Shown here piece after piece: positions 5,528 through 59,777 of a stretch of 64,000 nt of DNA; the first letter of the stretch is position 1; every line of letters starts with the position of its first letter. Source of the stretch: an uncultured Clostridia bacterium (lineage in GTDB: Bacteria > Bacillota > Clostridia > Oscillospirales > Ruminococcaceae). The position numbers and the translations under genes were made by a program. The stretch covers positions 1-64,000 of the forward strand of contig CANRAS010000007.1 of NCBI GenBank assembly GCA_947628655.1, read 5' to 3'. The notes beneath the pieces were generated by a model. It was not told the DNA's origin and did not search any database. It saw nothing but the letters and a program-made list of their open reading frames with translations.

Positions 5528-5557
5528 TTCTCCTCAACAAACGCGATTTTGGTTTCC
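5528..5557. repeat. 30 bp exact duplicate of the 3' end of the Abi_2 gene (remnant of an Abi C-terminus, ..ETKIAFVEEK)
   Basis: ttctcctcaacaaacgcgattttggtttcc occurs at about 5528-5557 and again at about 5634-5663, inside the Abi_2 coding 3' end. The downstream copy keeps the reading frame for ETKIAFVEEK and then diverges. Confidence 0.7.
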
Positions 5558-8384: not shown

Positions 8385-8509
8385 AACAACACCCTTTCCG
8401 ACCCGCAGACAAACCCGCCCGCGCGTATTGTTTTCCGCTTTTAGATTATTATACCACATATTTCTTCGGTTGTCAATAATTGCACGGGACTAAAAGGCGG
8501 TGCTTTCGC

Positions 8510-8945
8510 AGTTTATAGTTAAGAGTGCACGCATTATCCGCTTCGCGGAAAACGCTGTGCATAGTATTAGGTGTCCGCCTACGGCGGACGGAAAGATTGT
8601 CTTTAAGTCAATACGCGCCTGCACTAGTGCATCTAGCCCGCGTTTTGCGCGGAGCGCAAAACAACGGCGCGTAAGCGCCGTTAATTCGCCGTCAGGCGAA
8701 TTGCGGGCGGTCGGGCAACGGCGCGTACACGGGCGGTGCAGGCGCGTTAATACGCAGGACGTTAAACTAACGCTTGATAAGGGAAAGGGGCGCTTGAATT
8801 GAGCCACGCCCCATACGCGCGATAATGCGAACAACGCTTTGACCCGCAGACAATCTAATAAGCGCCCGCTAGGGCGCAACTCTGTGCATACTATGCACAG
8901 CGTTTTCCGCGAAGCGGATAATGCGTGCACTCTTAACTGTAAACT
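8510..8945. repeat. pair of ~100 bp inverted repeats flanking ~235 bp (MITE-like, or head-to-head copies of the dispersed element)
   Basis: Left arm at about 8510-8610, gtttatagttaagagtgcacgcattatccgcttcgcggaaaacgctgtgcatagtat + hairpin gtccgcc-tac-ggcggac + ggaaagattgtcttt. Right arm at about 8845-8945 is its reverse complement, agacaatctaat + hairpin gcgccc-gcta-gggcgc + ..ctgtgcatactatgcacagcgttttccgcgaagcggataatgcgtgcactcttaactgtaaac. Confidence 0.65.
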
Positions 8946-9472
8946 GTTATTGAGCCACGCCAAACGCGCATTTAAAGCAGTAAGGCTATTTAGGACGGCG
9001 GGCGCGGGGTGGCTTTGGGTCACAGCGTTGCTCGTCGCGGTGGGCGTTTTCTCGCGCCCCTACTTCGCCCCGCAAGGGGCGAAGTCTGGGGCACTCGAAA
9101 ACGCGACGGTTTGCCGTCTGAAATTCGCTGTCGCGAATTTCCCCGCCTGTCGGCGGGCGTTTGGCTACGCCAAACAACGGCAAACCGTGAAGAGCCTGCT
9201 AAACCACTCTGGGTGGACACGGTGAGCGGACTGCCGCCGGCAGTCCGCTCACAATAACGTTGCATTAAACCAACCGTTCCGCGCACTTCGTGCGCTCCAC
9301 TAGGCGCAAGGGGAAAGCCCGCTATCCTTCTAGTAGCTAGAGATTAGAAGCTAGTTGCTAGAGTGTGGATTAGCACTTAAACCTTATCTTCTCTTACTTC
9401 TTACCTCTAACCTCTTACCTCTATAAGTACTAACTACTAACAACTATTCTCTAAATATTCTCTAAAAACTAC

Positions 9473-9501
9473 TTGACAACTCCGACCAAATGTAGTATAA
9501 T
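9473..9501 (+). promoter_or_regulatory. sigma-A promoter (TTGACA-17-TATAAT) for the TetR/ABC operon
   Basis: Perfect consensus hexamers with a 17 nt spacer about 55 nt upstream of the TetR start. Confidence 0.6.
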
Positions 9502-9559
9502 ATGATAAGTAACATAAGTTACGCAATGTTTGTTGCTTATTGAGAAAGGAGTGTCAAAA

Positions 9560-10111
9560 TTGCCCCCAAAATTCAAATTCACCCGCGATGAAATCACAAG
9601 CGCCGCCGTGAACGTCACTCGAAAAAAGGGACCGGACGGGCTGACCGCGCGGGCTTTGGCTGAAGAATTGGGCTGTTCCGTGAAACCGATTTTCGGACTG
9701 TTCAAGAATATGGAGGAGGTGCAAAGCGCGGTTATGAACGCGGCGCAGGATATTTACGAAAGCTATCTTGCCGAAGATATGACATCGGGGAAATATCCGC
9801 TCTATAAGGCGAGCGGAATGGCGTATATTCGTTTTGCGAAAGAGGAACGGGAGTTGTTTAAACTGCTGTTTATGCGCGACCGCGGCGGTGAACCGCTTGA
9901 ACCTACACGAGAGGTTGACGCGATAATCCCGATTATTATGAAAACCACGGGGCTTTCGCGGGAGCAGGCGGAGCGGTTTCATCTGGAGATGTGGGTGGTA
10001 GTTCACGGTATCGCGTCGATGATTGCCACTTCGTACCTTATATGGAACGAGGAGCAAATCAGCGGAGTGATGACTGATTTCTATACGGGGTTGAGAACAG
10101 TTTACAAGTAG
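9560..10111 (+). CDS. TetR/AcrR family transcriptional regulator
   Basis: N-terminal HTH (..ITSAAVNVTRKKGPDGLTARALAEELGCSVKPIFGLFKNMEE..). The likely start is the TTG after the AAAGGAG RBS (MPPKFKF..); the ORF track starts 30 nt earlier. Confidence 0.7.
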   Translation: MPPKFKFTRDEITSAAVNVTRKKGPDGLTARALAEELGCSVKPIFGLFKNMEEVQSAVMNAAQDIYESYLAEDMTSGKYPLYKASGMAYIRFAKEERELFKLLFMRDRGGEPLEPTREVDAIIPIIMKTTGLSREQAERFHLEMWVVVHGIASMIATSYLIWNEEQISGVMTDFYTGLRTVYK

Positions 10112-10168
10112 TTGCTGGTTGCGGACTTTCGCCCGCTTAAATATTGTATTTGAAAAGGAAGTGATAAA

Positions 10169-10897
10169 ATGGACGCTATCAAAACGGTTGGTCTTACAAA
10201 AAAGTATAAGGATTTGACCGCTGTAGACGGTTTGGAATTGTGTGTTCCGCAAGGTGAGCTTTTCGCACTGCTCGGTGTAAACGGCGCGGGAAAAACCACT
10301 ACTATCAAAATGCTGACGGGGCTTTGTGTGCCTACGTCGGGCGACGCTTTTTTAAACGGCAAAAGTATTGTTACCGAAAGCGCGTCGGTAAAGCAGATGA
10401 TAGCCGTGTCACCGCAGGAAACGGCGGTTGCGCCGAATTTAACGGTGGGGGAAAATCTGTTCTTGCTTGCGGGAGTTCACGGATTTCCCAAAGGAAAATC
10501 CGCCGAAAAGGTCGAACGGTTATGTGCGCAGTTCAACCTAGGGGATATATTTGACAAAAAAGCCAAGAAACTTTCGGGCGGCAGACAGCGCAGTCTGAGC
10601 ATTGCCATGGCGCTTATCAGCGAACCGCAGATACTTTTTCTGGACGAGCCGACGCTCGGACTTGATGTTTTCGCGCGAAGTGATTTGTGGGATATAATAC
10701 GCGGTCTTAAAGGAAAAACCACCGTGGTATTGACTACGCACTACATGGAGGAAGCGGAGGAACTTTCCGACCGTGTCGGGATAATGGTAAGCGGACGGCT
10801 TGTTGCCGTGGGTACTCCCGATGAACTGAAACAAAAAGCGGGCGCAGAGAAATTCGAGGACGCTTTCGTCAGCATTGTAAAGGGGGCGAGAAAATGA
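10169..10897 (+). CDS. ABC transporter ATP-binding protein
   Basis: Walker A GVNGAGKTT, ABC signature LSGGRQRSLSIAMAL, Walker B ILFLDEPTLGLD. An RBS GGAAGTGA is present. Confidence 0.85.
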   Translation: MDAIKTVGLTKKYKDLTAVDGLELCVPQGELFALLGVNGAGKTTTIKMLTGLCVPTSGDAFLNGKSIVTESASVKQMIAVSPQETAVAPNLTVGENLFLLAGVHGFPKGKSAEKVERLCAQFNLGDIFDKKAKKLSGGRQRSLSIAMALISEPQILFLDEPTLGLDVFARSDLWDIIRGLKGKTTVVLTTHYMEEAEELSDRVGIMVSGRLVAVGTPDELKQKAGAEKFEDAFVSIVKGARK

Positions 10898-16170: not shown

Positions 16171-16330
16171 AATGTATAAACTCTTATGGCGGTTTCCTCG
16201 CCGTGCTAAAATGGGAATTATAAGAGATGCAGCCCTAGCAGGATAAATAATTGGGAGCGATAAAAGACGGGAGCCCTACCGGTATAAACAAATGGGAGCG
16301 ATTAAAGTCGGGATGCCCTACCGTGCAAAG
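16171..16330 (+). ncRNA. type III antitoxin RNA (ToxI-like): ~3.5 imperfect tandem repeats of 40-41 nt
   Basis: Repeats aatgggaattataagagatgcagccctagcaggataaat, aattgggagcgataaaagacgggagccctaccggtataaac and aaatgggagcgattaaagtcgggatgccctaccgtgcaaagc, plus a degenerate leading copy. They lie between a promoter and a terminator immediately upstream of toxN, which is the canonical type III arrangement. Confidence 0.65.
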
Positions 16331-16394: not shown

Positions 16395-16943
16395 ATGAAA
16401 CGCCCATTATTAGATTTATATTATGTAGATATGAAATATGTCCGGGAACTGCATAACGCCGATGACAATGTAATGTCGGTTTCTCCGCAGACAGGAAAAG
16501 CGGCACGCCCGTTTTTGGGATTGGTTATTGTTATGGAAACAAAGAAATATTGTATACCTTTGACTTCACCCAAAAAAGACAAGTTTAAAAGCAAGTCAAG
16601 AGTTGACTTTATCAAAATTCCCGACCCAAAAAGAAAAGATGAACACGGGGCGGCTTTAACTATCGGAATACTAAACTTAAACAATATGATACCCGTGTCG
16701 GAAAACGTCATTCAAAAAATAGATTTATCCAAATCAACAACTTTTAATAGGGATTTGTTGATAAACGAGTTAAAATGGTGCAGAGATAATTTTGATGTTA
16801 TATCAAACAGGGCGAATAAGCTGTACACCAAAATCACGCTGTTCCCCGACAAAGACCGAAATTTAACCCGCCGCTGCTGTAATTTCAAGAAACTTGAACA
16901 AGTTCTTGAAAAATATCTTAATAAAATGGCGATACATACTTAA
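16395..16943 (+). CDS. toxN: type III toxin-antitoxin system endoribonuclease toxin, ToxN/AbiQ family
   Basis: Aligns to Pectobacterium ToxN. FLGLVIVMETKKYCIPLTSPKK matches FIGIVLEIQGHKYLAPLTSPKK, GILNLNNMIPV matches GLINLKFMIPI, and the C-terminal ..CNFKKLEQVLEKY.. matches ..CDFSLLEEKY... 182 aa. Confidence 0.9.
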   Translation: MKRPLLDLYYVDMKYVRELHNADDNVMSVSPQTGKAARPFLGLVIVMETKKYCIPLTSPKKDKFKSKSRVDFIKIPDPKRKDEHGAALTIGILNLNNMIPVSENVIQKIDLSKSTTFNRDLLINELKWCRDNFDVISNRANKLYTKITLFPDKDRNLTRRCCNFKKLEQVLEKYLNKMAIHT

Positions 16944-18510: not shown

Positions 18511-18589
18511 GGCTGTCACCTTGGTTTTATTGGATTTATTAAGTTAATTATAGCATATTTTGAGAGTGTTGTCAATGCAGTTGCTAGAG

Positions 18590-18740
18590 AATAGTAGCTA
18601 GTAGCTAGTTTTGGGCACGGAAAGATTGTCTTTGAGTTAAGAGGTTGATTTTCTAGGGAAAAGCGTTCCCCCGCTCGTACGGCGGGGAGGGCGCGTGTTT
18701 ATTTTACCTGCGACGGTTGAAACTCTTACCTCTTACATCT
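18590..18740. repeat. dispersed intergenic element copy (..tagttttgggcacggaaAGATTGTCTttgagttaagagg.. + hairpin cccccgctcgtacggcgggg + cttacctcttac motifs)
   Basis: Shares the AGATTGTCT core and the ccccgcNNNNNgcgggg hairpin with other copies. Confidence 0.6.
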
Positions 18741-20101
18741 TACTTCTTGCCTCTGTTAGCAAGCCCCGTAACTCCATACTCCACCCGTATATTATCCCCT
18801 GTATACAATCGGTTGAAGTCGTTGATGACACGCTCGGCTACCATATCGCCGTTTACGGAGTTCGCATCCATAAGTATAACTATCATCTGGCGGTTGGAAT
18901 AGCGCGTTGAGATGTCTGAACGGCGCAGGGACGAAACTATCGACTGTTCGAGAAGTTTCATAGCCTGCTCCGCCTCCGCGGGGTCGGGGTTCGCGTTCGG
19001 GTTCTCGCTTATCGTGAACAGCACCGTCTGAACGTCGCGCCCGCTCCGCTCCACAAAACGCTGAATAAAGTTATATACGTTGTTAAATCCCTCAAAATCA
19101 AGCTGATACGCGCCTTTGCCCTTGTCCGCGCTGTTCATAAGTTCGTTTAAATGCTCTAGGTCAACCGCCTTGCGCGCAGGCTCTGCGGAGTTTTTACTGC
19201 TGAAGAAGTGACACGCGTCTTTGCCGTTCTGCTTTACATAGTAAAGAGCCTTGTCCGCCGCGTTTACGAGTTTTGAAAACTCACTGCCGTCCTCAGGCAC
19301 GGTCGCTATGCCGATTGATACGGTCGCGGTAAACTTGCCCTCGCCCGCTTTCGCCTTAATGCCGTCAAGAATTGCGTTCGCCTTGTCGCGAAGTTCGGAT
19401 TTGTCCGTCTTGTCCTTTATGAACATCACAAACTCGTCGCCGCCTATTCTGCACAAAACATCGCCGTCTGCGGAGTTTTCGCGCATAACGTCCGCCGCTG
19501 TTTTCAGCGTCTTGTCGCCCTCTATATGCCCGAACTCGTCGTTTATTCTCTTGAAATTGTCAATGTCAATCATCAACAGCGAACCCAAAAGTCCGAGTTT
19601 CAGCATCGAGTTTACGGCGTTTTCGGTGTAATCCCTGTTCCACAAGCCCGTCAGCAAATCGCGGTGTATCTTGCTCTTTGTATCCGAAACCTCGCGCACT
19701 TTCTGTTCGAGCCTGTCGGCTAATTTTTTGCGCAGTTCGGAAAGTTCAAGCACCCGTGCTATGCGCGACAGCATAACGGCGGGAACGAACGGTCTGCCGA
19801 TAAAATCCACTGCGCCCTCGTCAAAACAGCGCGTTTCCGTGTCGGAATTATTGTCGCCTGTTAAGAAAATCACGGGCGTCTGACGGTGCTTTTTTATCTG
19901 CCGAATACGACGCAAAAGTTCAAACCCGTCTATATCGGGCATATTTACATCAAGCAGTATAACGTCGCAGTCGCCGTTTTCGAGATAAGACAGCGCCTGC
20001 GTTCCCTTTTTCACAGGAATGACCTTATATTTTTCACTCAAAATCCCCCGCAAAGTCGAGAGGTTCACATTATCGTCATCTACCGCCAATATAGTATTCA
20101 T
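18740..20101 (-). CDS. response regulator with a GGDEF diguanylate cyclase domain (REC-GGDEF plus a ~150 aa C-terminal region of unknown function)
   Basis: REC motifs (ILAVDDDNVNL.., DVILLDVNMPDIDGFELL). GGDEF domain with RDLLTGLWNR, FKRINDEFGH and an intact GGDEF site (CRIGGDEFVMF). Confidence 0.85.
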   Translation of the reverse strand: MNTILAVDDDNVNLSTLRGILSEKYKVIPVKKGTQALSYLENGDCDVILLDVNMPDIDGFELLRRIRQIKKHRQTPVIFLTGDNNSDTETRCFDEGAVDFIGRPFVPAVMLSRIARVLELSELRKKLADRLEQKVREVSDTKSKIHRDLLTGLWNRDYTENAVNSMLKLGLLGSLLMIDIDNFKRINDEFGHIEGDKTLKTAADVMRENSADGDVLCRIGGDEFVMFIKDKTDKSELRDKANAILDGIKAKAGEGKFTATVSIGIATVPEDGSEFSKLVNAADKALYYVKQNGKDACHFFSSKNSAEPARKAVDLEHLNELMNSADKGKGAYQLDFEGFNNVYNFIQRFVERSGRDVQTVLFTISENPNANPDPAEAEQAMKLLEQSIVSSLRRSDISTRYSNRQMIVILMDANSVNGDMVAERVINDFNRLYTGDNIRVEYGVTGLANRGKK

Positions 20102-20261: not shown

Positions 20262-21053
20262 TTACAATATCGCGCCTTCAATTCCGTATTCTTTCGCTAT
20301 CTCGCCCATTTCGCCGTTTTCAGCCATTTCTTTAAGGAAATCATTCGCTTTCGCGGTAAGGTCAGAGCCTTTTCTGAAACCTATGCCGATTTCTTCCTCG
20401 TTCAACGGCAGAGCGTACGCAAGTTCCGAAAAATCACCGCCGTCCGCCGTGAAATATCCCGCCATAATTATATCTATAACCGCGCAGTCGGAAGAGCCTT
20501 TGACTACGCTGTCAAGAGCGTCCTTTTGCGTGTCGAACGTCGTGTAGCGGTACTTTTTCTCGGTCAGTATCTCCTCGCCCGCCGAACCGTCCTCAACGGC
20601 GAACAGCAGGTGCTGACAGTCCTCGACGGTCTTGTAATCGCCTATCTTGTCGCTTTTCATAACAATCACCTGCGAATTTGACAAATACGCCGACGTGCAT
20701 TCTATGTCTTTCTTTAATTCGTCGGTAAGCGTCATACCGTTCCATACCGTATCAATCGTGCCGTCGGCGAGCAAATCGGTTTTCTTGTCCCAATCTATTT
20801 CGACAAATTCGGGGGTAACGTCGAGTTCCTCCGCGAATTTCACGGCGAGTTTCGCGTCAAAGCCGTCCCAATTTTCGCCGTCGGGGAAGTCCATCGGCGC
20901 GTAGTCCGTAACGCCGATTTTAAACGTTCCCTTGCCTTGGATGTATTCAATATCCGACTGTCCGTCTTTCAGAACGCCCGCGCTCTCCTTTTTCGCGCAG
21001 CCCGACAGCATTAACACCGCCGCGGCGAGTATCGCAGATAATACTTTCTTCAT
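20262..21053 (-). CDS. lipoprotein, periplasmic solute-binding protein family 3 (amino-acid-binding-like)
   Basis: MKKVLSAILAAAVLMLSGC lipobox, RBS AGGAGAATAAC. SBP_bac_3-like core (..FKIGVTDYAPMDF.., ..DTVWNGMTLTDE..). The ORF track extends upstream to 21167 but the RBS-supported start is at 21053. Confidence 0.7.
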   Translation of the reverse strand: MKKVLSAILAAAVLMLSGCAKKESAGVLKDGQSDIEYIQGKGTFKIGVTDYAPMDFPDGENWDGFDAKLAVKFAEELDVTPEFVEIDWDKKTDLLADGTIDTVWNGMTLTDELKKDIECTSAYLSNSQVIVMKSDKIGDYKTVEDCQHLLFAVEDGSAGEEILTEKKYRYTTFDTQKDALDSVVKGSSDCAVIDIIMAGYFTADGGDFSELAYALPLNEEEIGIGFRKGSDLTAKANDFLKEMAENGEMGEIAKEYGIEGAIL

Positions 21054-21078: not shown

Positions 21079-23742
21079 TTATTTCTCCATAAACAGCAGA
21101 CCGAAACTTTCGGGACCGCAGTTAATTGAAATCGCGGGCGAGGCTTTTTGGTAGATGACCTGTTCAAACTTTATCCGTTTCTCCACCATCTGCGTTATTT
21201 CCTCCAGCGTCTCGGGGCGCATACCCGCGTGCGTGATGAACAGCAGTTTATTGTCTATCCTCGCGGGCTTTTTCAGCGTGCGCCTGATGTATTTGCGGGC
21301 GACTGTCGGCTTGTTTCCCATTTTTATTGAACCTACGCCCATACTGCTCTTTTTAAGCACAAGCACGGGACGGAGCATAAACGTTTCGCAAAAACTGCTG
21401 ATTTTCGGAGAAAGCCTGCCCGACCTTGCAAGGAATGTCGTACTCCCCACAACGAAACTCGTTCTTGTGCGCTCTTTGTAGCGTTTGATTTCGTCGAGGA
21501 TAACGTCGGGTTCGTTGCCCTTTTGAGCAAGTTTCGCGGCGCGCAGGACGATAAGTCCCATTCCGCTTGAAAGATGTCCCGAATCGACGACCGTTACATT
21601 GTCGAAAACGCTCGCCGCCTCCTCCGCTTTTTCGTAGCCTTTGCTGACGTTCTTCGCCATTGCTATGTGAATAATGTGCTGTGCTTTCGTAAGCTGTTCC
21701 GCGAAAAACGCCTCGTAGTCCGCAACGGAGGGTTCCTGCGAGTGGACTGTCTTATCGCTCGACGTAAGATAAGCGAGAACGCCCTCCGTTTCTATCTCCT
21801 CGCCGTCCTTGAAGTCGCCGCCCTCGGTCATAATATGATACGGCAAAACGGCTATCCTGTACTTCTTCGCAAGGTCTGCGGGAATGTCGCTTACGCTGTC
21901 GGTCGTTATCATAACAAGCTGTTTTCTTCTGTGACCCAATGTCGGACCTACAACCTCGTCACCCACACCCTCCGTCATCTTGACTATCTCGCGCGGCAGG
22001 TGCTTTAACATTTCCTCTTCAAGCTGCGCACCGCTTACGGGTTTCAGCAGATACCCGTCGAAACCTGCGCGCTTGTACATCTCCTGATTTTCACTTCCCG
22101 CGTTTGCCGTCAGTATAACGACAGGCGTTTCGACGTTCAGCCCGCTGTTATCGGAACGCAAATGCCCTAAACACTCTATGCCGTCCATAACGGGCATAAG
22201 GTGGTCCATAAAGATAACGTCATAACGCTTGTTCTGCGCTTTCTTTAAGCACTCCTCGCCGCTCGCCGCGGTGTCGCAGTTTACCTTTGTATCGGTCAGC
22301 AGTTTCACCGCGACCATAAGGTTCGTTTCGTTGTCGTCAACGATAAGAACATTCGCATTAGGAGCCTCGAACATCGCCTTGTAATGCTCGCGCGTTCTCG
22401 TTATACGGCGCTTTTCAAGGTCAAGTTCGCCGATTTTCTCCGCGCCTGCCGTCTGCTGAGGTATAGTCACCGTAAACGTCGAGCCTTTAGTGTAGACGCT
22501 GTTTACTTCAATATCCCCGCCCATAAGAGTTACAAGCTGTTTTACTATAGACAGTCCTAACCCCGTACCCTCTATAAAGCGGTTTTTCTCCTCGTCAACG
22601 CGCTGGAACGCGTCGAACAGGTGCGGGATACTCTCCTTTTTAACGCCCATTCCCGTATCGGTAACGGAATACGCGATACTTACATAATCGCCCTGTATCT
22701 GCCGGCGTTCTATCGACAGCGATACAGAACCCTCTTTCGTGTACTTCACGGCGTTGTTCAGAAGATTGATAAGAATTTGCTTTATCCGCACCTCGTCGCC
22801 GTGGAGCATAGCGGGAATTGTCGGCTCTACATTTATGTGAAACTCCAGACCCTTGTCTTTCGCTTTCACCCATATCATATTGACAATATCCGACAGCATT
22901 GCGCCGACGTCATACGTCACCGTGACAATATCCATTTTGCCCGATTCTATCTTCGACATATCGAGAATGTCGTTGATAAGCGACAACAGCATTTTGCTGG
23001 CGCTTTGAATGTTCATCGCGTCCTCCGCGACTTCATCGGAAACGTCCTCGCGGAGTATCATTTCATTAAGCCCTATTATCGTGTTTATCGGCGTACGGAT
23101 CTCGTGGCTCATACTCGAAAAGAAACGGTTCTGCGCGCGGTTAAGTTCTTCTATCTGCTTTTTCTGGCGCGTCGCCGTTTCGTTCTCGTCCTTGTAAACG
23201 GCGTTTTGGAATAACAGCATACCGCACGTTACGCCCGCAACTAACGTCAGCGTTGCGAGGGAATCTATAAACGCCATTGAAAGAGTATGCTGTCCTATTA
23301 AATCGGGGTGGTAGTACGCTATGTAATAGCACACGAGGAATATCAGATACCCTCCGCCGAGCAGAAAATACTTCACCTTGCCCGCGACAACAATCGTAGT
23401 AAGCACGAACCCCAAAATAAACCAGATAGGTCCTCCGCCGTAAATTCCTCCCGCCGTTATGAAATTGAACGGCAGAACGACATACATCGCAAGCGCGGAA
23501 ACGATAATCGCGCCCGCTTGTATTCTGCGCTTTTTCTTCGCGAAGTGAACGACGGTTTCGAGTACTATTATAGATACGACATTCGCAACTATATTAATAA
23601 CGCTCTCGCCTGAAATAATTCCGATAACCGAACCTAAAGCAAGCCCGATAAGTCCTAAAAGCGTCACGAGCCGAAACAGGCGTTCCTGCAATGTATAATC
23701 GCCGCCGCCTATAAGTTTCATCACGAACTTTTTGAGTTTCAC
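21079..23742 (-). CDS. hybrid sensor histidine kinase / response regulator with a C-terminal DegV (fatty-acid-binding, EDD-fold) domain
   Basis: N-terminal ~190 aa with 5-6 TM helices. HisKA H-box MSHEIRTPINTIIGL, HATPase_c G-boxes (GTGLGLSIVKQLV). REC (NVLIVDDNETNL.., DVIFMDHLMPVMDG). C-terminal ~280 aa matches DegV family proteins (ITTDSVSDIP.., ..SQEPS.., ..VVDSGHLSSGMGLIVLRAA.., ..FVVGSTTFLARSGRLS.., ..INCGPESFGL..). GTG start overlaps the stop of the upstream HK. Confidence 0.8.
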   Translation of the reverse strand: MKLKKFVMKLIGGGDYTLQERLFRLVTLLGLIGLALGSVIGIISGESVINIVANVVSIIVLETVVHFAKKKRRIQAGAIIVSALAMYVVLPFNFITAGGIYGGGPIWFILGFVLTTIVVAGKVKYFLLGGGYLIFLVCYYIAYYHPDLIGQHTLSMAFIDSLATLTLVAGVTCGMLLFQNAVYKDENETATRQKKQIEELNRAQNRFFSSMSHEIRTPINTIIGLNEMILREDVSDEVAEDAMNIQSASKMLLSLINDILDMSKIESGKMDIVTVTYDVGAMLSDIVNMIWVKAKDKGLEFHINVEPTIPAMLHGDEVRIKQILINLLNNAVKYTKEGSVSLSIERRQIQGDYVSIAYSVTDTGMGVKKESIPHLFDAFQRVDEEKNRFIEGTGLGLSIVKQLVTLMGGDIEVNSVYTKGSTFTVTIPQQTAGAEKIGELDLEKRRITRTREHYKAMFEAPNANVLIVDDNETNLMVAVKLLTDTKVNCDTAASGEECLKKAQNKRYDVIFMDHLMPVMDGIECLGHLRSDNSGLNVETPVVILTANAGSENQEMYKRAGFDGYLLKPVSGAQLEEEMLKHLPREIVKMTEGVGDEVVGPTLGHRRKQLVMITTDSVSDIPADLAKKYRIAVLPYHIMTEGGDFKDGEEIETEGVLAYLTSSDKTVHSQEPSVADYEAFFAEQLTKAQHIIHIAMAKNVSKGYEKAEEAASVFDNVTVVDSGHLSSGMGLIVLRAAKLAQKGNEPDVILDEIKRYKERTRTSFVVGSTTFLARSGRLSPKISSFCETFMLRPVLVLKKSSMGVGSIKMGNKPTVARKYIRRTLKKPARIDNKLLFITHAGMRPETLEEITQMVEKRIKFEQVIYQKASPAISINCGPESFGLLFMEK

Positions 23743-26501
23743 TTTCCGACACCGCCTTTCACGCGTTCAATCAGCGCGGAAGTTTTTTCGGACGCCGCCT
23801 CGTACTCAAATTCCTCGACGTCGCGCTCTATATCTTTCAGCAGTTTCTTCACGGGTTTGCCGTCAAATACCGCCCGCGCAAGTTCCTTGATAAGCGCCTG
23901 CGACTTGTCAGCCTCGTATGTTTCAAAGCTGGATTTAAGTTCGGAAAGATACTCGCAAAACTCCTCTGCGGAAATCTCCGTACCCGTGACTTCCTCTTCT
24001 TCGGCGGGTGTTTCCTCCGTTTGGGCAATGCCGATTGCCGAACCCATAAGTTTAACGGTCTGCGAATACATTTCCATAAGTTTCTCGTGGTTTTCCTTGA
24101 TATATTCGGCGTTGTTGTCCTTGGACGCGGTTTCCATATCCTTTGCGAACTGCGACAGCGCGTCCGCGCCCATCATCTTCGACGAACTTTTAAGCGAGTG
24201 TACTTGTATGCGGTAATTAGCGTAGTCCTCGCCCGCGAGGAATTTGTCAAGGTCGCTTTGCTTGCGTTCGCGGTCGCTGATGAACTTCTGCAAAAGCTGT
24301 ATGTAAAAGCCCTTGTCGCCTCGGCAGTACTCCATAGCCTCGGCGGTGTTGATACCGCCCGCCTGCAAAATTGAGAGTTCGTCCTGCGCTGCTCCCGCGT
24401 CCTCGCGTTCCTCGGCGCTGTCCTGCACGGGCGCGGGTTTCGGAATGTCTTTTTCATCGACAAACTTAATCCGAGTTTTCGGCAATACTTTCTTTAATAC
24501 GCGCTCAAGTTCGTTCGCCTCGACGGGCTTTGAGAGGAAGTCGTCAAAGCCCTCGCGCAGGAACATTTCCCGCGCCCCGCTGACGGCGTTCGCGGTGAAC
24601 GCAATAGCGGAGAAATTCTGCGCGCTCTCGGTGTTAAGCTGTCTTAGCTTTTTCAGCGTTTCCACACCGTCCATTTCGGGCATCATATGGTCGATAAACA
24701 GCAGGTCGAAGTCCTCCTGACCGCACATCTCGATAGCCTCCAGACCGCTGCCCGCGGTCTTTACGGACATTTGATAATCCCGCAGGATACCCTCCGCTAC
24801 CATTCGGTTCATCGGCTCGTCGTCCACGACAAGCACTTTCACATCGGGGCAAATCATTCGATTTCCCTGCGCGGCGGGACTTACCTCGGAATTCAGCAGA
24901 TTTACGACGGGGAAACAATGGAACGGCTTTCTGAGTACTTTAACGCGGCTGTTTTTCCGCATACGGTAGGTTTTGCCCGCAACGAGAATTACCTGCGTCT
25001 GCGGGTCGCAGTTCTCGAAGTAATCCGCGTCCTTTTCGTATTCCTCGTCCGCTAAGAGCAGGTGCGTAATTTCGTAAGCGGACATCAGCTTTTTCAAATC
25101 CCCTAAGCTGAATACCCTATGCACGGGAACGTCAAGCCCCGTCGCGAGGTTCAGTATCATTGTGTCATAGAACTGCCGTACTTCGGGGACTTTATACTTT
25201 TCGGGCATAAGATAGCACGCTATGCACAAGCTGTCGGGCTTTTCGACTTTCATTCCCGGCGCGGGGTCGACTATCTTCTGCGGAATACTTACCGTAACGC
25301 ACGTTCCCTCGCCCGGCTTGCTGTCAACGTGGATAAACCCGTCCATTGACCTTACCATACCGAACACAATAGGCAGTCCCAATCCCAGACCGCCCGCGCG
25401 GCGTTCGCGCCCGCTGCTCGACTGGTAGAAACGCTCGGTTACTCTTGAAAGGCTCTGCGCGTCCATTCCTATGCCCGTGTCGGTCACCTGTATTATCAGA
25501 TTTATCCCGTAGGACTTAGGAATATCGTATATTCTCACATAAACGCCGCCCGCGTCCGTGAATTTCAAGCCGTTATCGACAAGGTGCTTTATAATCTTCT
25601 TTATCTTCTTGCTGTCGCCGATAAGCATTGCGGGTATTTTCGGCTCAACGTCAAAGATAAGTTCCAGATTGTCCTTGCTGTCGGTCATACTCCGCTCGGT
25701 AATTATATCGTTCACAAGCGAGGACAGCATATACTGTTCGCTGCTCGCGGTCATTTTGTTTGTGTCGATTTCGGTGTAGTCAAGAATATCTTCTATCTGC
25801 CCGAACAGCCTGTACCCCGCCTTTTGTATCGAAAACAGATTGTCGCGCTTTGCGCTGTCGCTCTCGTTTTTCAGCATAACGGACGTAAGCCCCGTCACGG
25901 CGTTTATCGGCGTGCGGAGTTCGTGGGAAACGTTCGTCAGAAAATCCTCGGTTCGGCGGTTTTCATCTTCCAGTTTGTCGATTATCTCCTGATTTAACCG
26001 TTCGTTTTCCGCGCGGCGTTCTTTCAGTTTCTTTGCGAAATACATCGTGACAAGAATAAACGCGCACTGAATAACGATAAGCGCGATAACGCCCGGCGAA
26101 AAGTCCATTTCGCCGCCCGACACGAACAGCAGATTTCCCGCCAGCGTAAGGAAATACACAGCGGCGGTCAAATTCACAAACGCGTAATATTCCACCGCGA
26201 GATACAGTGCGCAAAGTCCGAGCGTCACAAACGCCAGCGGGCTGATATTTGCGGGTTCGAGTCCGAACGTGACAAGCGAATGCATTGTGAAAAGGTAACC
26301 TATCCATTTCTCCGCGCGCTCAGACACCTGCGGGAGCAGGCGCATTACCCAGCACACGACGAGCTTTGCGACTATCGAAATAATCGAAGTCACATGCTGA
26401 CCGTTGGACATTCTATACACTACGAATGCAGCCGCAAGGAATGTATAAAACATCAGAACCATCGTCAGATAGCTTGAATACCTTTTAGATTTTCGATCCA
26501 T
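23739..26501 (-). CDS. hybrid sensor histidine kinase (membrane sensor - HisKA - HATPase - REC - HPt)
   Basis: N-terminal polytopic membrane region. H-box VSHELRTPINAVTGL, G-box GGLGLGLPIVFGM. REC (VLVVDDEPMNRM.., DLLFIDHMMPEMDG). C-terminal HPt motif (VHSLKSSSKMMGADALS). 920 aa, RBS AAAGGGGA. Confidence 0.85.
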   Translation of the reverse strand: MDRKSKRYSSYLTMVLMFYTFLAAAFVVYRMSNGQHVTSIISIVAKLVVCWVMRLLPQVSERAEKWIGYLFTMHSLVTFGLEPANISPLAFVTLGLCALYLAVEYYAFVNLTAAVYFLTLAGNLLFVSGGEMDFSPGVIALIVIQCAFILVTMYFAKKLKERRAENERLNQEIIDKLEDENRRTEDFLTNVSHELRTPINAVTGLTSVMLKNESDSAKRDNLFSIQKAGYRLFGQIEDILDYTEIDTNKMTASSEQYMLSSLVNDIITERSMTDSKDNLELIFDVEPKIPAMLIGDSKKIKKIIKHLVDNGLKFTDAGGVYVRIYDIPKSYGINLIIQVTDTGIGMDAQSLSRVTERFYQSSSGRERRAGGLGLGLPIVFGMVRSMDGFIHVDSKPGEGTCVTVSIPQKIVDPAPGMKVEKPDSLCIACYLMPEKYKVPEVRQFYDTMILNLATGLDVPVHRVFSLGDLKKLMSAYEITHLLLADEEYEKDADYFENCDPQTQVILVAGKTYRMRKNSRVKVLRKPFHCFPVVNLLNSEVSPAAQGNRMICPDVKVLVVDDEPMNRMVAEGILRDYQMSVKTAGSGLEAIEMCGQEDFDLLFIDHMMPEMDGVETLKKLRQLNTESAQNFSAIAFTANAVSGAREMFLREGFDDFLSKPVEANELERVLKKVLPKTRIKFVDEKDIPKPAPVQDSAEEREDAGAAQDELSILQAGGINTAEAMEYCRGDKGFYIQLLQKFISDRERKQSDLDKFLAGEDYANYRIQVHSLKSSSKMMGADALSQFAKDMETASKDNNAEYIKENHEKLMEMYSQTVKLMGSAIGIAQTEETPAEEEEVTGTEISAEEFCEYLSELKSSFETYEADKSQALIKELARAVFDGKPVKKLLKDIERDVEEFEYEAASEKTSALIERVKGGVGK

Positions 26502-26807: not shown

Positions 26808-27833
26808 TTACTTCTCTCGCATATCATAATCCGTGTCCGCGTCTATCATCGCGAGCATAATATCCGCGAAAACGGGGTCGAACTGCGTGCCTTTGCCTTT
26901 TTCGACCTCCGCGCGCACCTGCTCCTGCGGGATTACCCCGCGGTAGGCGCGCTTTGAACTCATCGCGTCATACGCGTCCGCTACGGCGATTATCCGCGCC
27001 TCAACGGGAATATCGTCGCCCGAAAGCCCTTCGGGGTAGCCCTTGCCGTCGTAACGCTCGTGATGATACTTCGCGCCCAGCACGAGCCTCGGGAACTCCT
27101 CGATTTTCTTCAGTATATTCTCACCCAAGACAGGGTGGTTTTTGATAATCGCGTACTCCTCGTCGTTCAGCCGCGACGGTTTATTGATAATCGCGTCGGG
27201 TATTCCTATTTTCCCGACATCGTGAAGTAACCCGATAAGGTAAATATCGTCCTGTTCCTGTTTGGAAAATCCTGCCAGCGCCGCCATTCTGCGCGAATAC
27301 TCGGCTACTCTTGCCGAATGACCGTTTGTGTATGTATCTTTTGCGTCCACCGCGCCCGACAGCGCCATTACTATCTGCACGGTCATTTTCTCGACTTTTT
27401 TCTGCTGAGCGATAACCTCGCGCGTCTTAACGCCGACTTCGTGAGCCAAATCGTTTTGCAGGCGCGTAAGTTCTACGATGTGGTTAATTCTAAGCAACAG
27501 CACTTCGGTAATAAACGGCTTTGTGATAAAATCGACCGCGCCCGCTTTCAAACAGCGAGTTTCGGTTTCGTTGTCGTTATCGGCGGTAAGGAATATCACG
27601 GGAATATCGGCGGCAGTCGCGCTGGCTTGAATATGTTTCAGCGTTTCAAAGCCGTCCATTTCGGGCATATGTACGTCCAAGAGAATTATATCGGGCTTAT
27701 TTGTTGTCAAGAATTTCAGCGCGGAACTCCCTGACTTTACGCAGGAAACGCGCATACCCTCAGAGCTTAATATACTGTTAGCGACCGTAAGGTTCGCCGT
27801 GTCGTCGTCGACTACAAGTATCCAGTAATCCAA
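26808..27833 (-). CDS. response regulator with an HD-GYP c-di-GMP phosphodiesterase domain
   Basis: REC (ILVVDDDTANL.., DIILLDVHMPEMDGFE). HD-GYP motifs (..GLLHDVGKIGIPD.., ..HHERYDGKGYPEGL). The likely start is the TTG after RBS GGGGTGA. A TTGACA-17-TATAAT promoter lies at about 27865-27895 on the minus strand. Confidence 0.8.
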   Translation of the reverse strand: MDYWILVVDDDTANLTVANSILSSEGMRVSCVKSGSSALKFLTTNKPDIILLDVHMPEMDGFETLKHIQASATAADIPVIFLTADNDNETETRCLKAGAVDFITKPFITEVLLLRINHIVELTRLQNDLAHEVGVKTREVIAQQKKVEKMTVQIVMALSGAVDAKDTYTNGHSARVAEYSRRMAALAGFSKQEQDDIYLIGLLHDVGKIGIPDAIINKPSRLNDEEYAIIKNHPVLGENILKKIEEFPRLVLGAKYHHERYDGKGYPEGLSGDDIPVEARIIAVADAYDAMSSKRAYRGVIPQEQVRAEVEKGKGTQFDPVFADIMLAMIDADTDYDMREK

Positions 27834-28158
27834 TTCACTCACCCCGTTTGCAAGATACAACTATACAGATTAATTATAGCAAAAAGATAGGATTTTGTCA
27901 AGGTGTAATAAGGAAAAAATTACAGGAAAAGCGGAAGAAGTAAGATTTTCCCCGCCGTTTAACGGTTTACCGTGTTGACTACGCATTTCCCGCTGAGCGG
28001 GAACGCTGTGAACAGTAAGAGCGCCCTCCCCGACTACGGCGGGAGGGCGCGTGTTTTAATTATGCTGCCTCTCCGCCAAAGGCGGGGGCGTTTTTACTTC
28101 TTGACTCTTATCAAACAGCAGGCTTCGCCTGCTGTTTGAGAGTAATCCGCTTCGCGGA

Positions 28159-37318: not shown

Positions 37319-37484
37319 AACTTTTAATTCTCCTCCTGCTTTTTACGTCTATATACAGTAGTACTTATTTTATTATAACACATTAAACAGGAAATTGCAA
37401 CCCATTTTTCAAATTATTTTATAATTATTGGCAGGTATTTTATGACAATAATTACCAAAAGCCCACACATACGCTGTTAAAGCG

Positions 37485-38813: not shown

Positions 38814-38836
38814 CGTCCTTTCCGCTTTTTATTTTC

Positions 38837-40102: not shown

Positions 40103-40160
40103 ATTATCACCCTTTCAACAAATCTAGTGCATAATATGTTGAAAGGGGAAATTGCGTGAA

Positions 40161-41297: not shown

Positions 41298-41312
41298 ATT
41301 TTAAGCCTCCGT

Positions 41313-42743: not shown

Positions 42744-42761
42744 TTATTTCTAATCCTCCCA

Positions 42762-45148: not shown

Positions 45149-45163
45149 AAATAAATTACCAAC

Positions 45164-46627
45164 CTAATTTTTTTTATTCGCAAAATACTCCTCCACTATC
45201 TCGCGTTCGTCAAAGTGGAAATAAGTATCGCCTATCGCCTGATAATCCTCGTGACCCTTTCCGCAGAGCGCTATTATATCGCCTTTTTCTGCGATGTCAA
45301 GCGCGCGGAAAATCGCCGCTTTTCTGTCCGTAAACTCCTCGTGCGGAACGTTTTGCGGTATTCCTTTCACAACATCGTCTATCGTAGTTTGCGGGTTCTC
45401 GTGGCGCGGGCTGTCGGTCGTGACTATCAGAATATCCGAAAACCGCGCCGCCGCCTCTCCCATATCGGGGCGCTTGCCCGCGTCGCGCTCTCCTGCCGCG
45501 CCGAAAAGCGTAATAAGCCTGCCGCTCGTCAGCGGTTTGAGTGCGGAAAGCAGTTTACAAAGTCCGTCTGCGGTATGCGCGTAATCGCGTATTACGGTAA
45601 ATTCGCCTTTATAAAGCGTTTCAAGCCGTCCCGATACGCCGTTTATTTTTGCGAGCGCGGCGACGATTTCATCGAGAGGCATTCCCATAAGCGACACCGC
45701 GGTCACCGCTGAAACAGCGTTCATAACGTTGTATTTCCCCGTAAGCGCGAACTTTACGGGATAGCTTTTTTGCGCCGCGCTGTCGGTCAGTATAAACTCG
45801 CTCCCGTCGGGACGAAGATTTACAAACTCCGTATAGAAATCCGCTATGCCGTCAACGGACACGGTTTTGAGCGGTACGCCTTTTTCACGGCAATATTCGG
45901 CGATTTTAACGCCGTATTCGTCGTCAATATTCACGACGGCACATTCGCACATATCGAAAAGTCTGCGCTTTGCCTCGAAATAGTTCTCCATCGTCTTGTG
46001 ATAATCGAGGTGGTCGCGGGTCAGATTAGTGAAAATCCCTACGCGAAAGCCGTCCTCGGCAAAGCGATATTGCGAAAGCGCCTGCGAACTTGCCTCGACA
46101 AAGCAATATTCGGTGTTTTCGTTTACCATTTGCGCGAAAAGCTGATAGAGCCTGCGCGGTTCGGGGGTCGTGGGCGGTCCGTCGTGCGAATAGGAAAGTC
46201 CTCCGCCCGTGTCAACTCCCAAAGTGCCGATAGTTCCCGTGCGGTGACCCAAACCCCGCGTAATTTTAGCGCAAAGGTCGGTTATCGTCGTCTTGCCGTT
46301 CGTTCCCGTTACGGCGCATATTTTAAGTTTACGCGCGGGGTGTCCGTAAAACGCCGACAGAAGTTCGGGGTATATCCTGCGGGAATTTGAAACGCAGATT
46401 TCGCGTGCAAGTCCGAGGGGCGTTTGCGTTACGACCGCCGACGCGCCTTTTTCCAAAGCGGTTTTCGCCATCGTGTGACCGTCAAAGTTCCCGCCTTTTA
46501 TGCAGACGAACACAAAGTCCGTTTCAACCTCTCGGCTGTCGGAAGTTACGCCCGCCACGGAAAGCCGTGAAATTTCCTGCGGTATGTCACATATCCCCTC
46601 GAAAAGTTCCCCGCAATTCACAAGCAC
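45164..46627 (-). CDS. murE: UDP-N-acetylmuramoyl-L-alanyl-D-glutamate--2,6-diaminopimelate ligase
   Basis: P-loop AVTGTNGKTT and the TDSR region; 487 aa. Confidence 0.85.
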   Translation of the reverse strand: MLVNCGELFEGICDIPQEISRLSVAGVTSDSREVETDFVFVCIKGGNFDGHTMAKTALEKGASAVVTQTPLGLAREICVSNSRRIYPELLSAFYGHPARKLKICAVTGTNGKTTITDLCAKITRGLGHRTGTIGTLGVDTGGGLSYSHDGPPTTPEPRRLYQLFAQMVNENTEYCFVEASSQALSQYRFAEDGFRVGIFTNLTRDHLDYHKTMENYFEAKRRLFDMCECAVVNIDDEYGVKIAEYCREKGVPLKTVSVDGIADFYTEFVNLRPDGSEFILTDSAAQKSYPVKFALTGKYNVMNAVSAVTAVSLMGMPLDEIVAALAKINGVSGRLETLYKGEFTVIRDYAHTADGLCKLLSALKPLTSGRLITLFGAAGERDAGKRPDMGEAAARFSDILIVTTDSPRHENPQTTIDDVVKGIPQNVPHEEFTDRKAAIFRALDIAEKGDIIALCGKGHEDYQAIGDTYFHFDEREIVEEYFANKKN

Positions 46628-46639
46628 ACCACCTTACCG

Positions 46640-46800: not shown

Positions 46801-46801
46801 G

Positions 46802-49870: not shown

Positions 49871-49903
49871 TAAACATCACCTCGCCGCCGCTGTTTTTCA
49901 CAG

Positions 49904-53566: not shown

Positions 53567-53574
53567 TTATGCTC

Positions 53575-55168: not shown

Positions 55169-55816
55169 TCAGTCAATATACCCTACCAATATCACAACCA
55201 ACGCCATAGACAAGACAATCAGTCCGACGGCAAGAGCGTTTCCGCTCACTTTATTTAATACGCGCATTTTAAACAGTATGATAAGCCAGATTATCAGCAC
55301 CGCAATCGCGAGGACAAGCAAGCCCGCAACTATCTTCAGTTTGCCCGTCAATTTATAATTGCTGTCGGCGTAAAGTCCTTCGCTTACCGACATTTCAAGT
55401 TCGGCTAATTGTCTGTTCACTTCATACACGCGAAGTCCGCTTTTCGGCGCGGTTCGGCGAAGCAGCGCTTTTATATGCACGGGCGCTTTTGCCGAACCGT
55501 CCGAGGAGTTGAAGTTTTCGTTAAACCATTTTGGTTCAGCCTGCACTAAATACGGGGTAAGTCCGTCTTTGTCGAGCGTAATATAAAAATGTTCCGTCCT
55601 CACGGGGATTAAAGCGAACAGCTTGTGCGTTATCTCGTACACTTCCTTTGCGTAATAAGCGTCATACTCGATAACATCGCCCTTGCCCGCCGTTTCAACG
55701 GGCGCGGTCGGGGCTGTCTGGTCCTGTATTCCCCCTATCAGCGACATTACAAGGAAAAGCACGCAGAATATCGAAACTATAACAATACTTACCTTGCTGT
55801 TTCTTGCTCCCGCCAT
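55169..55816 (-). CDS. hypothetical bitopic membrane protein (215 aa)
   Basis: N-terminal and C-terminal TM segments; no motif. Confidence 0.4.
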   Translation of the reverse strand: MAGARNSKVSIVIVSIFCVLFLVMSLIGGIQDQTAPTAPVETAGKGDVIEYDAYYAKEVYEITHKLFALIPVRTEHFYITLDKDGLTPYLVQAEPKWFNENFNSSDGSAKAPVHIKALLRRTAPKSGLRVYEVNRQLAELEMSVSEGLYADSNYKLTGKLKIVAGLLVLAIAVLIIWLIILFKMRVLNKVSGNALAVGLIVLSMALVVILVGYID

Positions 55817-58686: not shown

Positions 58687-59502
58687 TCAGTATATGTTCA
58701 TCCCGCTGAATATTTCAATCATCTCACTGCGCAGGCTGTTCGTAATCGCAAGGCGTTCCTGCGGGTGGACTTCATAAGCGTCCGTGTTGAACAGGTAGTT
58801 TTGAAGTTCTATTTCTTTGATAAGCATTTTTGTGTGGAATATATTTGACTGATACACGTTCACGTCCATAGCGTCGTATCTTGTAAGCGTTTCGGGGTCG
58901 ATAAATTCCTGTATTGAGCGCATAGGACTGTCCATAAAGCACTTTTTCCCCGTTACATCGCGCGTAAAACCGCGCACGCGATAATCTATTATGATAATAT
59001 CGGAATCGAAACTGCCGATAAGAAAATCCAGCGTTTTAAGCGGCGTTATCTCTCCGCACGTCGCAACGTCAATATCTACGCGGAATGTCGAGATCGCCTT
59101 ATCGGGGTGATATTCGGGGAAAGTGTGGACGGTGATGTGACTTTTATCCAAATGCGCATTAACGGAACAGCCCGCCGACTGATAGTATTCCAAACCCTTG
59201 TTGCAGGAACTGTCGATATGTTCGGGGTCGATACTTCCCTCGGCAAACAGCACGTTCACGGACGCGCCCTGCGGGTCATAATCCTGTTTTGATATGTTCA
59301 GTACGGTAGCGCCGATACGCTCCGTCACTCCGCACAAAATACCCGTCAGCCGTTCGGAATTATACTGCTCGTCAATATAAGCGATATAATCCTTTTGCTC
59401 CCTCTCACTTTTCGCGTAGCACACATCGTAAATGTTAAAGCTGAGCGTTTTTGTGAGGTTGTTAAAGCCATACAGCGACAGCTTTTTTTCCAACCCTAAC
59501 AT
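58687..59502 (-). CDS. speD: S-adenosylmethionine decarboxylase proenzyme (E. coli SpeD type)
   Basis: LSLYGFNNLTKTLSFNIYDVCYAKSEREQKDYIAYIDEQYN is closely similar to E. coli SpeD ([41 protein letters not shown]). Confidence 0.85.
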   Translation of the reverse strand: MLGLEKKLSLYGFNNLTKTLSFNIYDVCYAKSEREQKDYIAYIDEQYNSERLTGILCGVTERIGATVLNISKQDYDPQGASVNVLFAEGSIDPEHIDSSCNKGLEYYQSAGCSVNAHLDKSHITVHTFPEYHPDKAISTFRVDIDVATCGEITPLKTLDFLIGSFDSDIIIIDYRVRGFTRDVTGKKCFMDSPMRSIQEFIDPETLTRYDAMDVNVYQSNIFHTKMLIKEIELQNYLFNTDAYEVHPQERLAITNSLRSEMIEIFSGMNIY

Positions 59503-59777
59503 CACCCTTTCCTGAATAAAATTTTTAAAACTATTTTGTTTTCACACAAATTATATTTACAGTCAAAATGATTATAACATATTTTCAAAAAAATAGCAAT
59601 AGTTTTTTATTATTTTTTAAAGATAACGGCGCACGGATTTTTTGCCGTGCATAACACGGAAAGAATACTTGCAAAAAATATCCGCGCAATTCGTTTAAAC
59701 CTAAAAAATGCGCTTTGTTTATTGCATTTTAATAAATTCAATATAAAAAAATATACAATTTTATGAAATATTACTAT

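Follow-up and report, generated by a model that had tools for sequence, protein, structure and literature searches.

The 64,000-nucleotide stretch of DNA analyzed here (the window; positions 1 to 64,000 of contig CANRAS010000007.1, from an uncultured Clostridia bacterium of the Ruminococcaceae) encodes a hybrid histidine kinase that carries a DegV domain at its C-terminus. This kinase, named HK1 in this report, is encoded at 21079..23742 on the minus strand and is coupled to a partner hybrid kinase, HK2, in an operon that also contains HD-GYP and GGDEF response regulators. To our knowledge, the only described role of DegV/FakB proteins is that of soluble carriers that supply fatty acids to fatty-acid kinase. 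The hybrid-kinase phosphorelay is itself known, but the DegV domain appears to be a previously undescribed class of accessory domain within it. Judging from sequence comparisons, the fusion is genuine and under selection. It is tentatively proposed that the DegV domain is a membrane-tethered module that senses lipids or fatty acids and controls the flow of phosphoryl groups from two kinases, by way of one Hpt, to the HD-GYP and GGDEF regulators, thereby setting the level of cyclic di-GMP (c-di-GMP), a reading that falls somewhat short of probable.

The HK1 gene is defined by the list of open reading frames, its translation, Pfam matches, and more than 120 orthologue clusters. It is an uninterrupted single frame of 887 codons plus stop that begins with GTG, and this start codon shares four nucleotides (GTGA) with the TGA stop codon of the upstream HK2 gene, so that the two genes are translationally coupled; the four-nucleotide overlap is also present in an orthologue. 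The sequence-only reading of this DNA had described an 887-residue protein with the order sensor, HisKA, HATPase, REC, and DegV. Pfam and transmembrane prediction bear out this order, far above chance expectation, and place the gene on the minus strand, which that reading had left unstated. Residues 1–195 (23158..23742, minus) form a membrane domain, delimited by hydropathy, conservation, and an AlphaFold2 (AF2) model, in which six transmembrane helices are predicted and extracytoplasmic loops are nearly absent (predicted local distance difference test score, pLDDT, 84). The last of these helices continues directly into the DHp stalk; neither a HAMP nor a PAS domain intervenes. The HisKA (DHp) domain spans residues 203–268 (22939..23136, minus; Pfam E 1.8e-18) and contains His213 in the motif SHEIRTP, and the HATPase_c domain spans residues 315–430 (22453..22800, minus; Pfam E 2e-28), with N, G1, and G2 boxes readable in the translation. 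The receiver (REC; Response_reg) covers residues 465–576 (22015..22350, minus; Pfam E 1e-23) and contains Asp469, Asp470, the phospho-acceptor Asp513, Thr545, and Lys567. HK1 thus has the H-box His, the complete HATPase_c, and the fused receiver with DD...D...T...K of a hybrid HisKA-type kinase, and there is no Pfam match to an Hpt domain within HK1 itself.

The receiver is joined to the DegV domain by a linker (residues 577–610; 21913..22014, minus) that is defined by its AF2 pLDDT and its conservation, and about 15 of its residues (591–605) are predicted to be disordered (pLDDT <50). The EDD-fold, FakB-like DegV domain itself occupies residues 611–886 (21085..21912, minus) and is supported by Pfam, PDB sequence matches, and Foldseek. 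A DegV profile match and a predicted EDD fold had been named beforehand as the checks on this assignment, and both were obtained. The match to PF02645 is full-length (E 1.1e-46; 159.9 bits against a cut-off of 27; profile positions 3–279 of 280), and the NCBIfam DegV model TIGR00762 is also passed (174.9 bits against a cut-off of 99.7). The characteristic sequence blocks quoted in the sequence-only reading are all present, as TTDSVSD at 613, SQEPS at 668, VVDSG at 718, RSGRLS at 773, and NCGPES at 874, the last being a variant of H-x-G-P-G with Asn in place of His. The closest PDB sequence match to the DegV domain is 2dt8 (E 1e-25). In an AF2 model that spans residues 455–887 of HK1 (mean pLDDT 85.7), REC is a normal, well-folded (βα)5 domain, the linker is disordered, and DegV is well folded. 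A Foldseek search of the PDB returned 45 DegV/FakB chains (E 1e-17 to 5e-25; target-normalised TM-score 0.79–0.86; root-mean-square deviation 2.5–4.1 Å), and TM-scores against the fatty-acid-loaded DegV/FakB crystal structures are 0.83–0.86. No PDB entry that combines REC with DegV was found in the same search.

The spread of the fusion was probed with protein and genome searches. A search of 5.8 billion proteins yielded more than 120 clusters of HK1 orthologues (60–99% identity; 820–907 residues) with four Pfam domains identical to those of HK1, which answers the earlier suggestion of a domain-architecture search for HisKA, HATPase_c, REC, and DegV. Where the sources give these proteins any name, it is only 'DegV family protein'. 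An exhaustive HMMER search of 1.84 billion representatives with the REC-DegV query gave 674 matches at E <= 1e-30. In more than 100 of the top 150 of these (50%-level clusters), REC-DegV lies at the C-terminus of a protein of roughly 890 residues. Additionally, one genome per GTDB species was scanned with the single REC-DegV sequence of HK1, revealing 544 stretches that encode relatives of this half of the protein. Locus counts out of 80 given below refer to the best 80 of these 544 stretches (45–77% identity), which lie in 80 species genomes. The REC-DegV junction is matched without interruption in all 80 loci, which derive from gut and rumen Clostridia, cultured isolates included, and include Ruminococcaceae FB2012 and AB4001. 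The groups that bear the fusion include Lachnospiraceae, Acetatifactor, Saccharofermentans, and Eubacterium, and the genomes nearest to the window are metagenome-assembled genomes from rabbit gut, so that the window probably stems from an animal-gut bacterium resembling Lachnospiraceae. The cultured isolate Clostridium sp. AF37-5 (NZ_QUDR01000001.1; locus L042) has an orthologous open reading frame of 893 residues (7636–10317). An apparent insertion of 145 residues in loci L041, L042, and L044 was rejected as a tblastn artefact that arises from joining the downstream REC-GGDEF gene.

Conservation was scored in a close-family alignment of 121 orthologues with at least 60% identity to HK1. His213, Asp469, Asp470, Asp513, Thr545, and Lys567 are invariant in all 121 sequences, and since these are the residues of the kinase and the relay, both the kinase core and the relay receiver look functional; HK1 is therefore predicted to be an active hybrid histidine kinase. 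Conservation scores are 0.74–0.91 for the catalytic domains, 0.59 for DegV, and 0.51 for the membrane sensor, and the REC-DegV linker has the lowest score in HK1 (0.45). Within the membrane domain, a 64-orthologue comparison identifies an intramembrane motif, LPFNFxTxGGIYGGxPIWF (residues 90–108; 23419–23475, minus), that is nearly invariant, as well as Gln19, Glu20, Asn50, Tyr139, and Pro146, which are likewise invariant. Such conservation is unusual in a loop-less transmembrane sensor with no family assignment. The membrane domains of HK1 and HK2 have no Pfam or NCBIfam family match, and Foldseek finds no significant fold match in the PDB for the six-helix domain of HK1. The best candidate, the six-helix domain of the Mycobacterium tuberculosis adenylyl cyclase Rv1625c, was rejected as not significant (E 0.74; TM-score 0.54).

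The predicted fatty-acid site of the DegV domain was examined by comparison with FakB. In FakB proteins, the fatty acid carboxylate is held by Thr61/62, Ser93/95, Ser171, Arg170/173, and His264/266/270 (PMC8892158, PMC10848957), and these residues were placed on HK1 through HMMER alignments to 2dt8, 1pzx, and 4x9x. The position of Thr61 is occupied by Ser668, which is invariant in the 121 orthologues, as is Arg776 at the position of Arg170. Ser700, equivalent to Ser93, is kept in 117 of the 121; Ser774, equivalent to Ser171 of FakB1, is conserved in the close family; and Asn874, at the position of the canonical His, is kept in 120, changing H-x-G-P-G to N-C-G-P-G/E. Based on these alignments, the head-group site is predicted to be kept in the HK1 subfamily with one systematic change, His to Asn. 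The Asn would be compatible with hydrogen bonding, yet it departs from the canonical residue. FakB docks on FakA through Leu181 and Arg202 (PMC10848957). In HK1, Leu181 aligns with A/T787 and Arg202 with I/M808 or Thr810, with basic residues nearby at 807 and 811, in a loop where the alignment is gapped; the FakA-docking residues are not evidently kept. A candidate thiol pair, Cys785/Cys875, was rejected, as these clade-typical cysteines do not co-vary (Fisher p = 0.11).

HK1 belongs to an operon of five co-directional genes in the order REC-HD-GYP, HK2, HK1, solute-binding protein (SBP) lipoprotein, and REC-GGDEF. The first gene (26808..27860, minus) encodes a predicted c-di-GMP phosphodiesterase (Pfam HD_5 E 3e-36; REC E 2e-31) with intact motifs (HD at 213 and HHERYDGKGYP). 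HK2 (23739..26501, minus; Pfam and sequence) is a protein of 920 residues with a membrane domain, HisKA, HATPase, an insert of about 130 residues, REC, and Hpt (VHSLKSSSKMMG), and its Hpt is the only one that Pfam detects in the operon. Downstream of HK1 lie a solute-binding lipoprotein of the SBP_bac_3 family (20262..21053, minus; Pfam E 5e-25, with signal peptide and lipobox), whose likely true start, MKKVLS...LSGC, is 26 nucleotides past the HK1 stop, and the last gene of the operon (18740..20101, minus; Pfam and motifs), a predicted REC-GGDEF diguanylate cyclase with an intact GGDEF motif and no RxxD I-site. A promoter-like site, TTGACA-17-TATAAT with TG, lies ahead of the operon at 27873..27901 (minus) and matches the sigma-70 consensus at 12 of 12 positions, as a pattern match only.

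The sequence-only reading had linked HK1 to the c-di-GMP cyclase and phosphodiesterase regulators beside it, and this link holds up in related genomes. Synteny was counted in the 80 loci by tblastn with domain-specific queries. An Hpt-bearing kinase lies immediately upstream of HK1 in 75 of the 80 loci. An HD-GYP domain (37–92% identity), the best-conserved neighbour, is found in 56, usually some 5 kb upstream. A GGDEF domain is found in 46, where it mostly lies right after HK1 or right before the HD-GYP gene, and 25 loci have the SBP gene downstream. Furthermore, two Pfam-annotated orthologue contigs share the same operon core. Because the neighbours are conserved, the link between HK1 and the c-di-GMP regulators rests on synteny, beyond mere adjacency.

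Several features of the neighbouring genes stand apart from this argument. The HK2 insert (residues ~420–550; 24852–25244, minus) is detectable in 73 of the 80 loci, yet matches nothing in Pfam even when the threshold is relaxed to E <= 1; a degenerate receiver and a docking domain are both possible identities. No gene for an ATP-binding cassette (ABC) permease or ATPase accompanies the SBP_bac_3 lipoprotein in the operon, and this orphan amino-acid-type SBP may serve as an extracellular co-sensor for the loop-less kinases. Residues 300–453 of the REC-GGDEF protein (18740–19201, minus) form an extra C-terminal region of about 150 residues with weak similarity to GGDEF (E 7e-4, below the cut-off), which may be a degenerate second GGDEF. 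A second 12 of 12 sigma-70 match with TG, at 18547–18575 (minus), precedes the following MatE transporter gene, such that the two matches bracket the operon.

The relatives of the HK1 DegV domain reveal how freely the module has been rearranged. Four architectures occur in its clade: TM-HK-REC-DegV, where TM denotes a transmembrane sensor; dCache-HK-REC-DegV; HK-REC-DegV-Hpt; and DegV-TM-HK-REC-Hpt. The latter two are each present in at least seven clusters at 50% identity. Members of the clade are nearly all fused to, or encoded beside, histidine kinases, and a pair of hybrid kinases with a single DegV is common to the four neighbourhoods inspected, along with a single Hpt where detected; for the partner kinase in locus L002, no Hpt match was recorded. 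Locus L003 (5959–11072) carries [HK-REC][DegV-HK-REC-Hpt] in genes that overlap by 1 nucleotide, on a contig that looks Fibrobacter-like from its neighbouring Fib_succ_major and T2SS genes, which suggests that the DegV-kinase module reaches beyond Firmicutes. Another contig reads [REC-GGDEF][HK-REC][HK-REC-DegV-Hpt][REC]. The matches include no convincing REC-DegV response regulator that stands alone; those of 380–460 residues are mostly fragments that lack a start, and only P0158 opens with Met. Two candidate stand-alone DegV proteins were also set aside: P0190 owes its separation to an in-frame TAG within the linker, in an operon that is otherwise identical (L085), and P0230 lies on an uninformative 1.4-kb contig. 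Similarly, HisKA-HATPase-DegV-Hpt without REC was rejected as a recurring type, as it was seen in the singleton P0246 and not repeated by other candidates.

Together with its location, these rearrangements bear on the role of the DegV domain. A true response-regulator output is expected to stay behind its receiver and to occur in stand-alone regulators. The HK1 receiver is internal to a kinase, and in relatives DegV precedes the kinase or separates REC from Hpt, which speaks for a modulator or input over a receiver-controlled output. Comparison of the domain architectures therefore suggests that DegV regulates the phosphorelay or provides input to it. The conservation score of the domain, nearer to that of the membrane sensor than to those of the catalytic domains, is counted in favor of a sensing role, as is the lack of evident FakA-docking residues. 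Additionally, the membrane surface is where FakB proteins exchange fatty acid (PMC8892158), and a DegV domain on a membrane kinase would be well placed to sample fatty acid from the bilayer.

The following mechanism is proposed as the likeliest of those considered. HK1 and HK2 would each autophosphorylate on His and pass the phosphoryl group to the Asp of their own receivers. Both receivers would then feed the single Hpt, on HK2, which would phosphorylate the REC-HD-GYP and REC-GGDEF proteins of the operon to set the level of c-di-GMP. The DegV domain, hanging from the HK1 receiver by its flexible linker beside the membrane, would load free fatty acid from the bilayer in the manner of FakB, and its occupancy would promote or block phosphoryl flow from the neighbouring REC to the Hpt. 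In this scheme we infer the identity of the ligand, the direction of regulation, and the routing of phosphate through the Hpt of HK2.

Several observations weigh against this proposal. DegV remains constant while the N-terminal sensors vary (transmembrane-only or dCache), which also fits a mechanistic core or scaffold. The full head-group set is present in only 26 of 133 representatives of the wider clade, and distant fused relatives often have Tyr, Lys, Gln, or Phe in place of Arg776 and Gly in place of Ser700; canonical carboxylate binding is consequently not a universal role across the clade. The loss of FakA docking is uncertain because of the alignment gap around Arg202, and transfer of phosphate from HK1 to the HK2 Hpt is suggested by gene pairing alone.

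The best-surviving alternative is that the DegV domain was co-opted as a ligand-independent structural or docking module, which joins HK1 to HK2 or positions the Hpt or the regulators, and that fatty-acid binding is vestigial or lost. The decay of the head-group residues in most distant fused relatives is consistent with this explanation, as is the finding that the best-conserved positions over the 133-representative clade are structural, with the fold-defining Gly, Ala, and Phe above 90%. The persistence of the module as sensors change and the presence of one DegV per kinase pair, whichever polypeptide bears it (in the four neighbourhoods inspected), would likewise be expected of a scaffold. 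Such a ligand-independent role may accordingly apply to distant relatives. However, the invariant or nearly invariant Ser668, Arg776, and Asn874 of the HK1 subfamily, together with Ser700, point to selection on the predicted ligand site there, and a ligand-independent role is considered unlikely for HK1 because its own subfamily keeps this site. Apo-FakB proteins are reported to be unstable without fatty acid (PMC8892158), and this also counts against a scaffold, since lipid is then probably at least a structural cofactor.

It was initially suggested, from the position of the domain after a receiver, that DegV is a receiver-gated output effector. Receiver phosphorylation would then control DegV and gate the uptake, release, or hand-off of fatty acid (to FakA, PlsX/PlsY, or the membrane), and the kinase would regulate lipid handling directly. 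DegV is indeed C-terminal to REC, the usual output position, in HK1 and in about 90 representative clusters, and the close family shows no variation at Arg776, the Arg thought to stabilize the carboxylate or acyl-phosphate. This reading is nevertheless not favoured and is regarded as distinctly improbable: the receiver is the relay receiver of a hybrid kinase, the position of DegV varies among relatives, the short REC-DegV matches are mostly fragments, and the FakA-docking residues are not evidently kept. Furthermore, no fatty-acid metabolism genes (FakA, PlsX, or similar) occur among the Pfam-scanned open reading frames of the window, a set from which three frames of at least 150 residues on the main coding strand (45164..46627, 55169..55816, and 58687..59505) were left unscanned.

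A third possibility involves phosphoryl chemistry at the DegV domain itself. The carboxylate of a DegV-bound fatty acid would accept a phosphoryl group from REC~P or His~P, giving an acyl-phosphate independently of FakA, or an acyl-phosphate would donate to the receiver Asp, so that the kinase reads the acyl-phosphate pool. Chemically, aspartyl-phosphate and acyl-phosphate are of one class, and small acyl-phosphates can serve as donors to REC domains. The invariance of the Arg proposed to stabilize the acyl-phosphate, the placement of DegV between REC and Hpt in several relatives, and P0246, in which DegV stands between HATPase and Hpt with no receiver, would all fit such chemistry. Set against these points, the idea is pure inference, P0246 is a single cluster that may reflect an artefact of assembly or deletion, many relatives have lost the carboxylate-binding residues, and a flexible linker of 15 residues imposes no fixed geometry. 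It is accordingly thought very unlikely; if true, it would wire membrane lipid synthesis, through the phospholipid-precursor pool, directly into c-di-GMP control.

Finally, the explanation that a frameshift, or an error of sequencing or assembly, fused a separate DegV gene to the kinase, which the sequence-only reading had named as a reason for doubt, is judged refuted by the single open frame of the window, the contiguous junction in 80 independent species genomes, and the full-length orthologue clusters (876–907 residues), that of the cultured Clostridium sp. AF37-5 among them, against which stands one relative (L085) whose linker contains an in-frame TAG (5548–5550) that separates HK-REC (591 residues) from DegV (287 residues). 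This TAG was seen in a single metagenomic contig; it may have arisen by nonsense mutation or sequencing error, or the gene may be naturally split.

Comparison with known systems places the proposed sensing role of the DegV domain in context. HK1 DegV shares full-length homology and the two-lobed EDD fold with the FakB/DegV proteins (Staphylococcus aureus FakB1 and FakB2, Streptococcus pneumoniae FakB1–3, Thermotoga maritima TM841, and Bacillus subtilis DegV), and the head-group motifs TDSxxD, S-x-x-P, xSGxY, and GR(I/L)S are present in HK1, with the equivalents of Thr61, Ser93, and Arg170 kept. Unlike FakB, which is a stand-alone soluble protein of about 280 residues, HK1 DegV is covalently fused within an 887-residue membrane hybrid kinase. 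It also differs in the Asn of NCGP in place of the His of HxGPG, in the absence of evident equivalents of Leu181 and Arg202, and in belonging to a distinct clade whose distant members have a degenerate site. With respect to the relay, several kinases converge on a shared Hpt in the Vibrio LuxN/LuxQ/CqsS–LuxU pathway and in the Pseudomonas GacS network. As in these relays, where kinases with no Hpt of their own feed a shared one, HK1 has no Hpt and HK2 bears one; in contrast to them, the Hpt here is inside one of the kinases, HK2, whose gene is translationally coupled to that of HK1 and remains syntenic with it in many species, and enzymes of c-di-GMP turnover form the outputs.

The downstream parts of the operon resemble the diffusible signal factor (DSF) pathway of Xanthomonas, in which DSF, a fatty acid, activates the hybrid kinase RpfC to drive the REC-HD-GYP protein RpfG (PMC5391125). 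RpfC reads HisKA-HATPase-REC-Hpt, and the HK1 operon has the same combination of an Hpt-bearing hybrid kinase with REC-HD-GYP (paired in 56 of the 80 loci). The sensing parts differ, as RpfC has no DegV and senses DSF through a short N-terminal periplasmic and transmembrane region, while the operon described here has two kinases, a DegV domain, an additional REC-GGDEF, and membrane domains with no family match. No crotonase-family, RpfF-like synthase was found among the Pfam-scanned open reading frames of the window. The likeness to DSF signalling is therefore an analogy, in which the sensing part is not homologous. Precedents for the placement of the domain are Caulobacter ShkA, which has a c-di-GMP-binding pseudo-receiver (PMC6969517), and Myxococcus SgmT, in which a C-terminal GGDEF domain acts as a c-di-GMP receptor (PMC3509222). 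In both, a cytoplasmic ligand-binding domain after the kinase core or receiver controls activity, localisation, or phosphotransfer rather than output, and HK1 is proposed to be similar, although those domains are nucleotide binders of the REC or GGDEF type and that of HK1 is an EDD-fold DegV predicted to bind lipid. A looser precedent comes from S. aureus, where FakA/FakB influences the SaeRS two-component system (PMC5539427). The free-fatty-acid pool is tied to a histidine kinase through DegV-family proteins in that case as well, but it acts indirectly and between separate proteins, whereas the DegV domain of HK1 is within the kinase polypeptide.

The remainder of the window contains several gene clusters beyond the operon. 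A ToxN-family type III toxin gene (16395–16943, plus; Pfam E 3e-40) is preceded by a 41-nucleotide tandem repeat of 2.2 copies (16231–16322, plus) that looks like a ToxI-type antitoxin RNA array. A TerB_N/TerB_C protein (3376–5436, minus) adjoins an abortive-infection-like Abi_2 protein (5624–6502, minus), and the combination of TerB, Abi_2, and ToxN suggests a small defence-gene neighbourhood. Cell-division/cell-wall and polyamine clusters span 36149–50830 (minus) and 52415–58423 (minus); the former functions are represented by FtsZ, FtsQ-like, MurA-like, MurG, FtsW, Mur ligase, penicillin-binding protein, and MraW genes, and the latter by spermidine synthase, a saccharopine-dehydrogenase-like protein, and two decarboxylases.

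Full-text literature searches returned no description of a DegV-kinase fusion, in agreement with the earlier impression that this architecture is uncharacterised. Many gut and rumen Clostridia, cultured isolates among them, carry the fusion as a conserved core component of a phosphorelay that is predicted to control c-di-GMP. HK1 might also help to explain how Fak is connected to SaeRS in S. aureus. If the DegV domain senses fatty acids, it would represent a new class of cytoplasmic sensor domain among histidine kinases and a Gram-positive functional counterpart of DSF signalling, and through it fatty acids of the diet, the host, or the membrane could directly influence decisions on motility and biofilm formation in major gut commensals.

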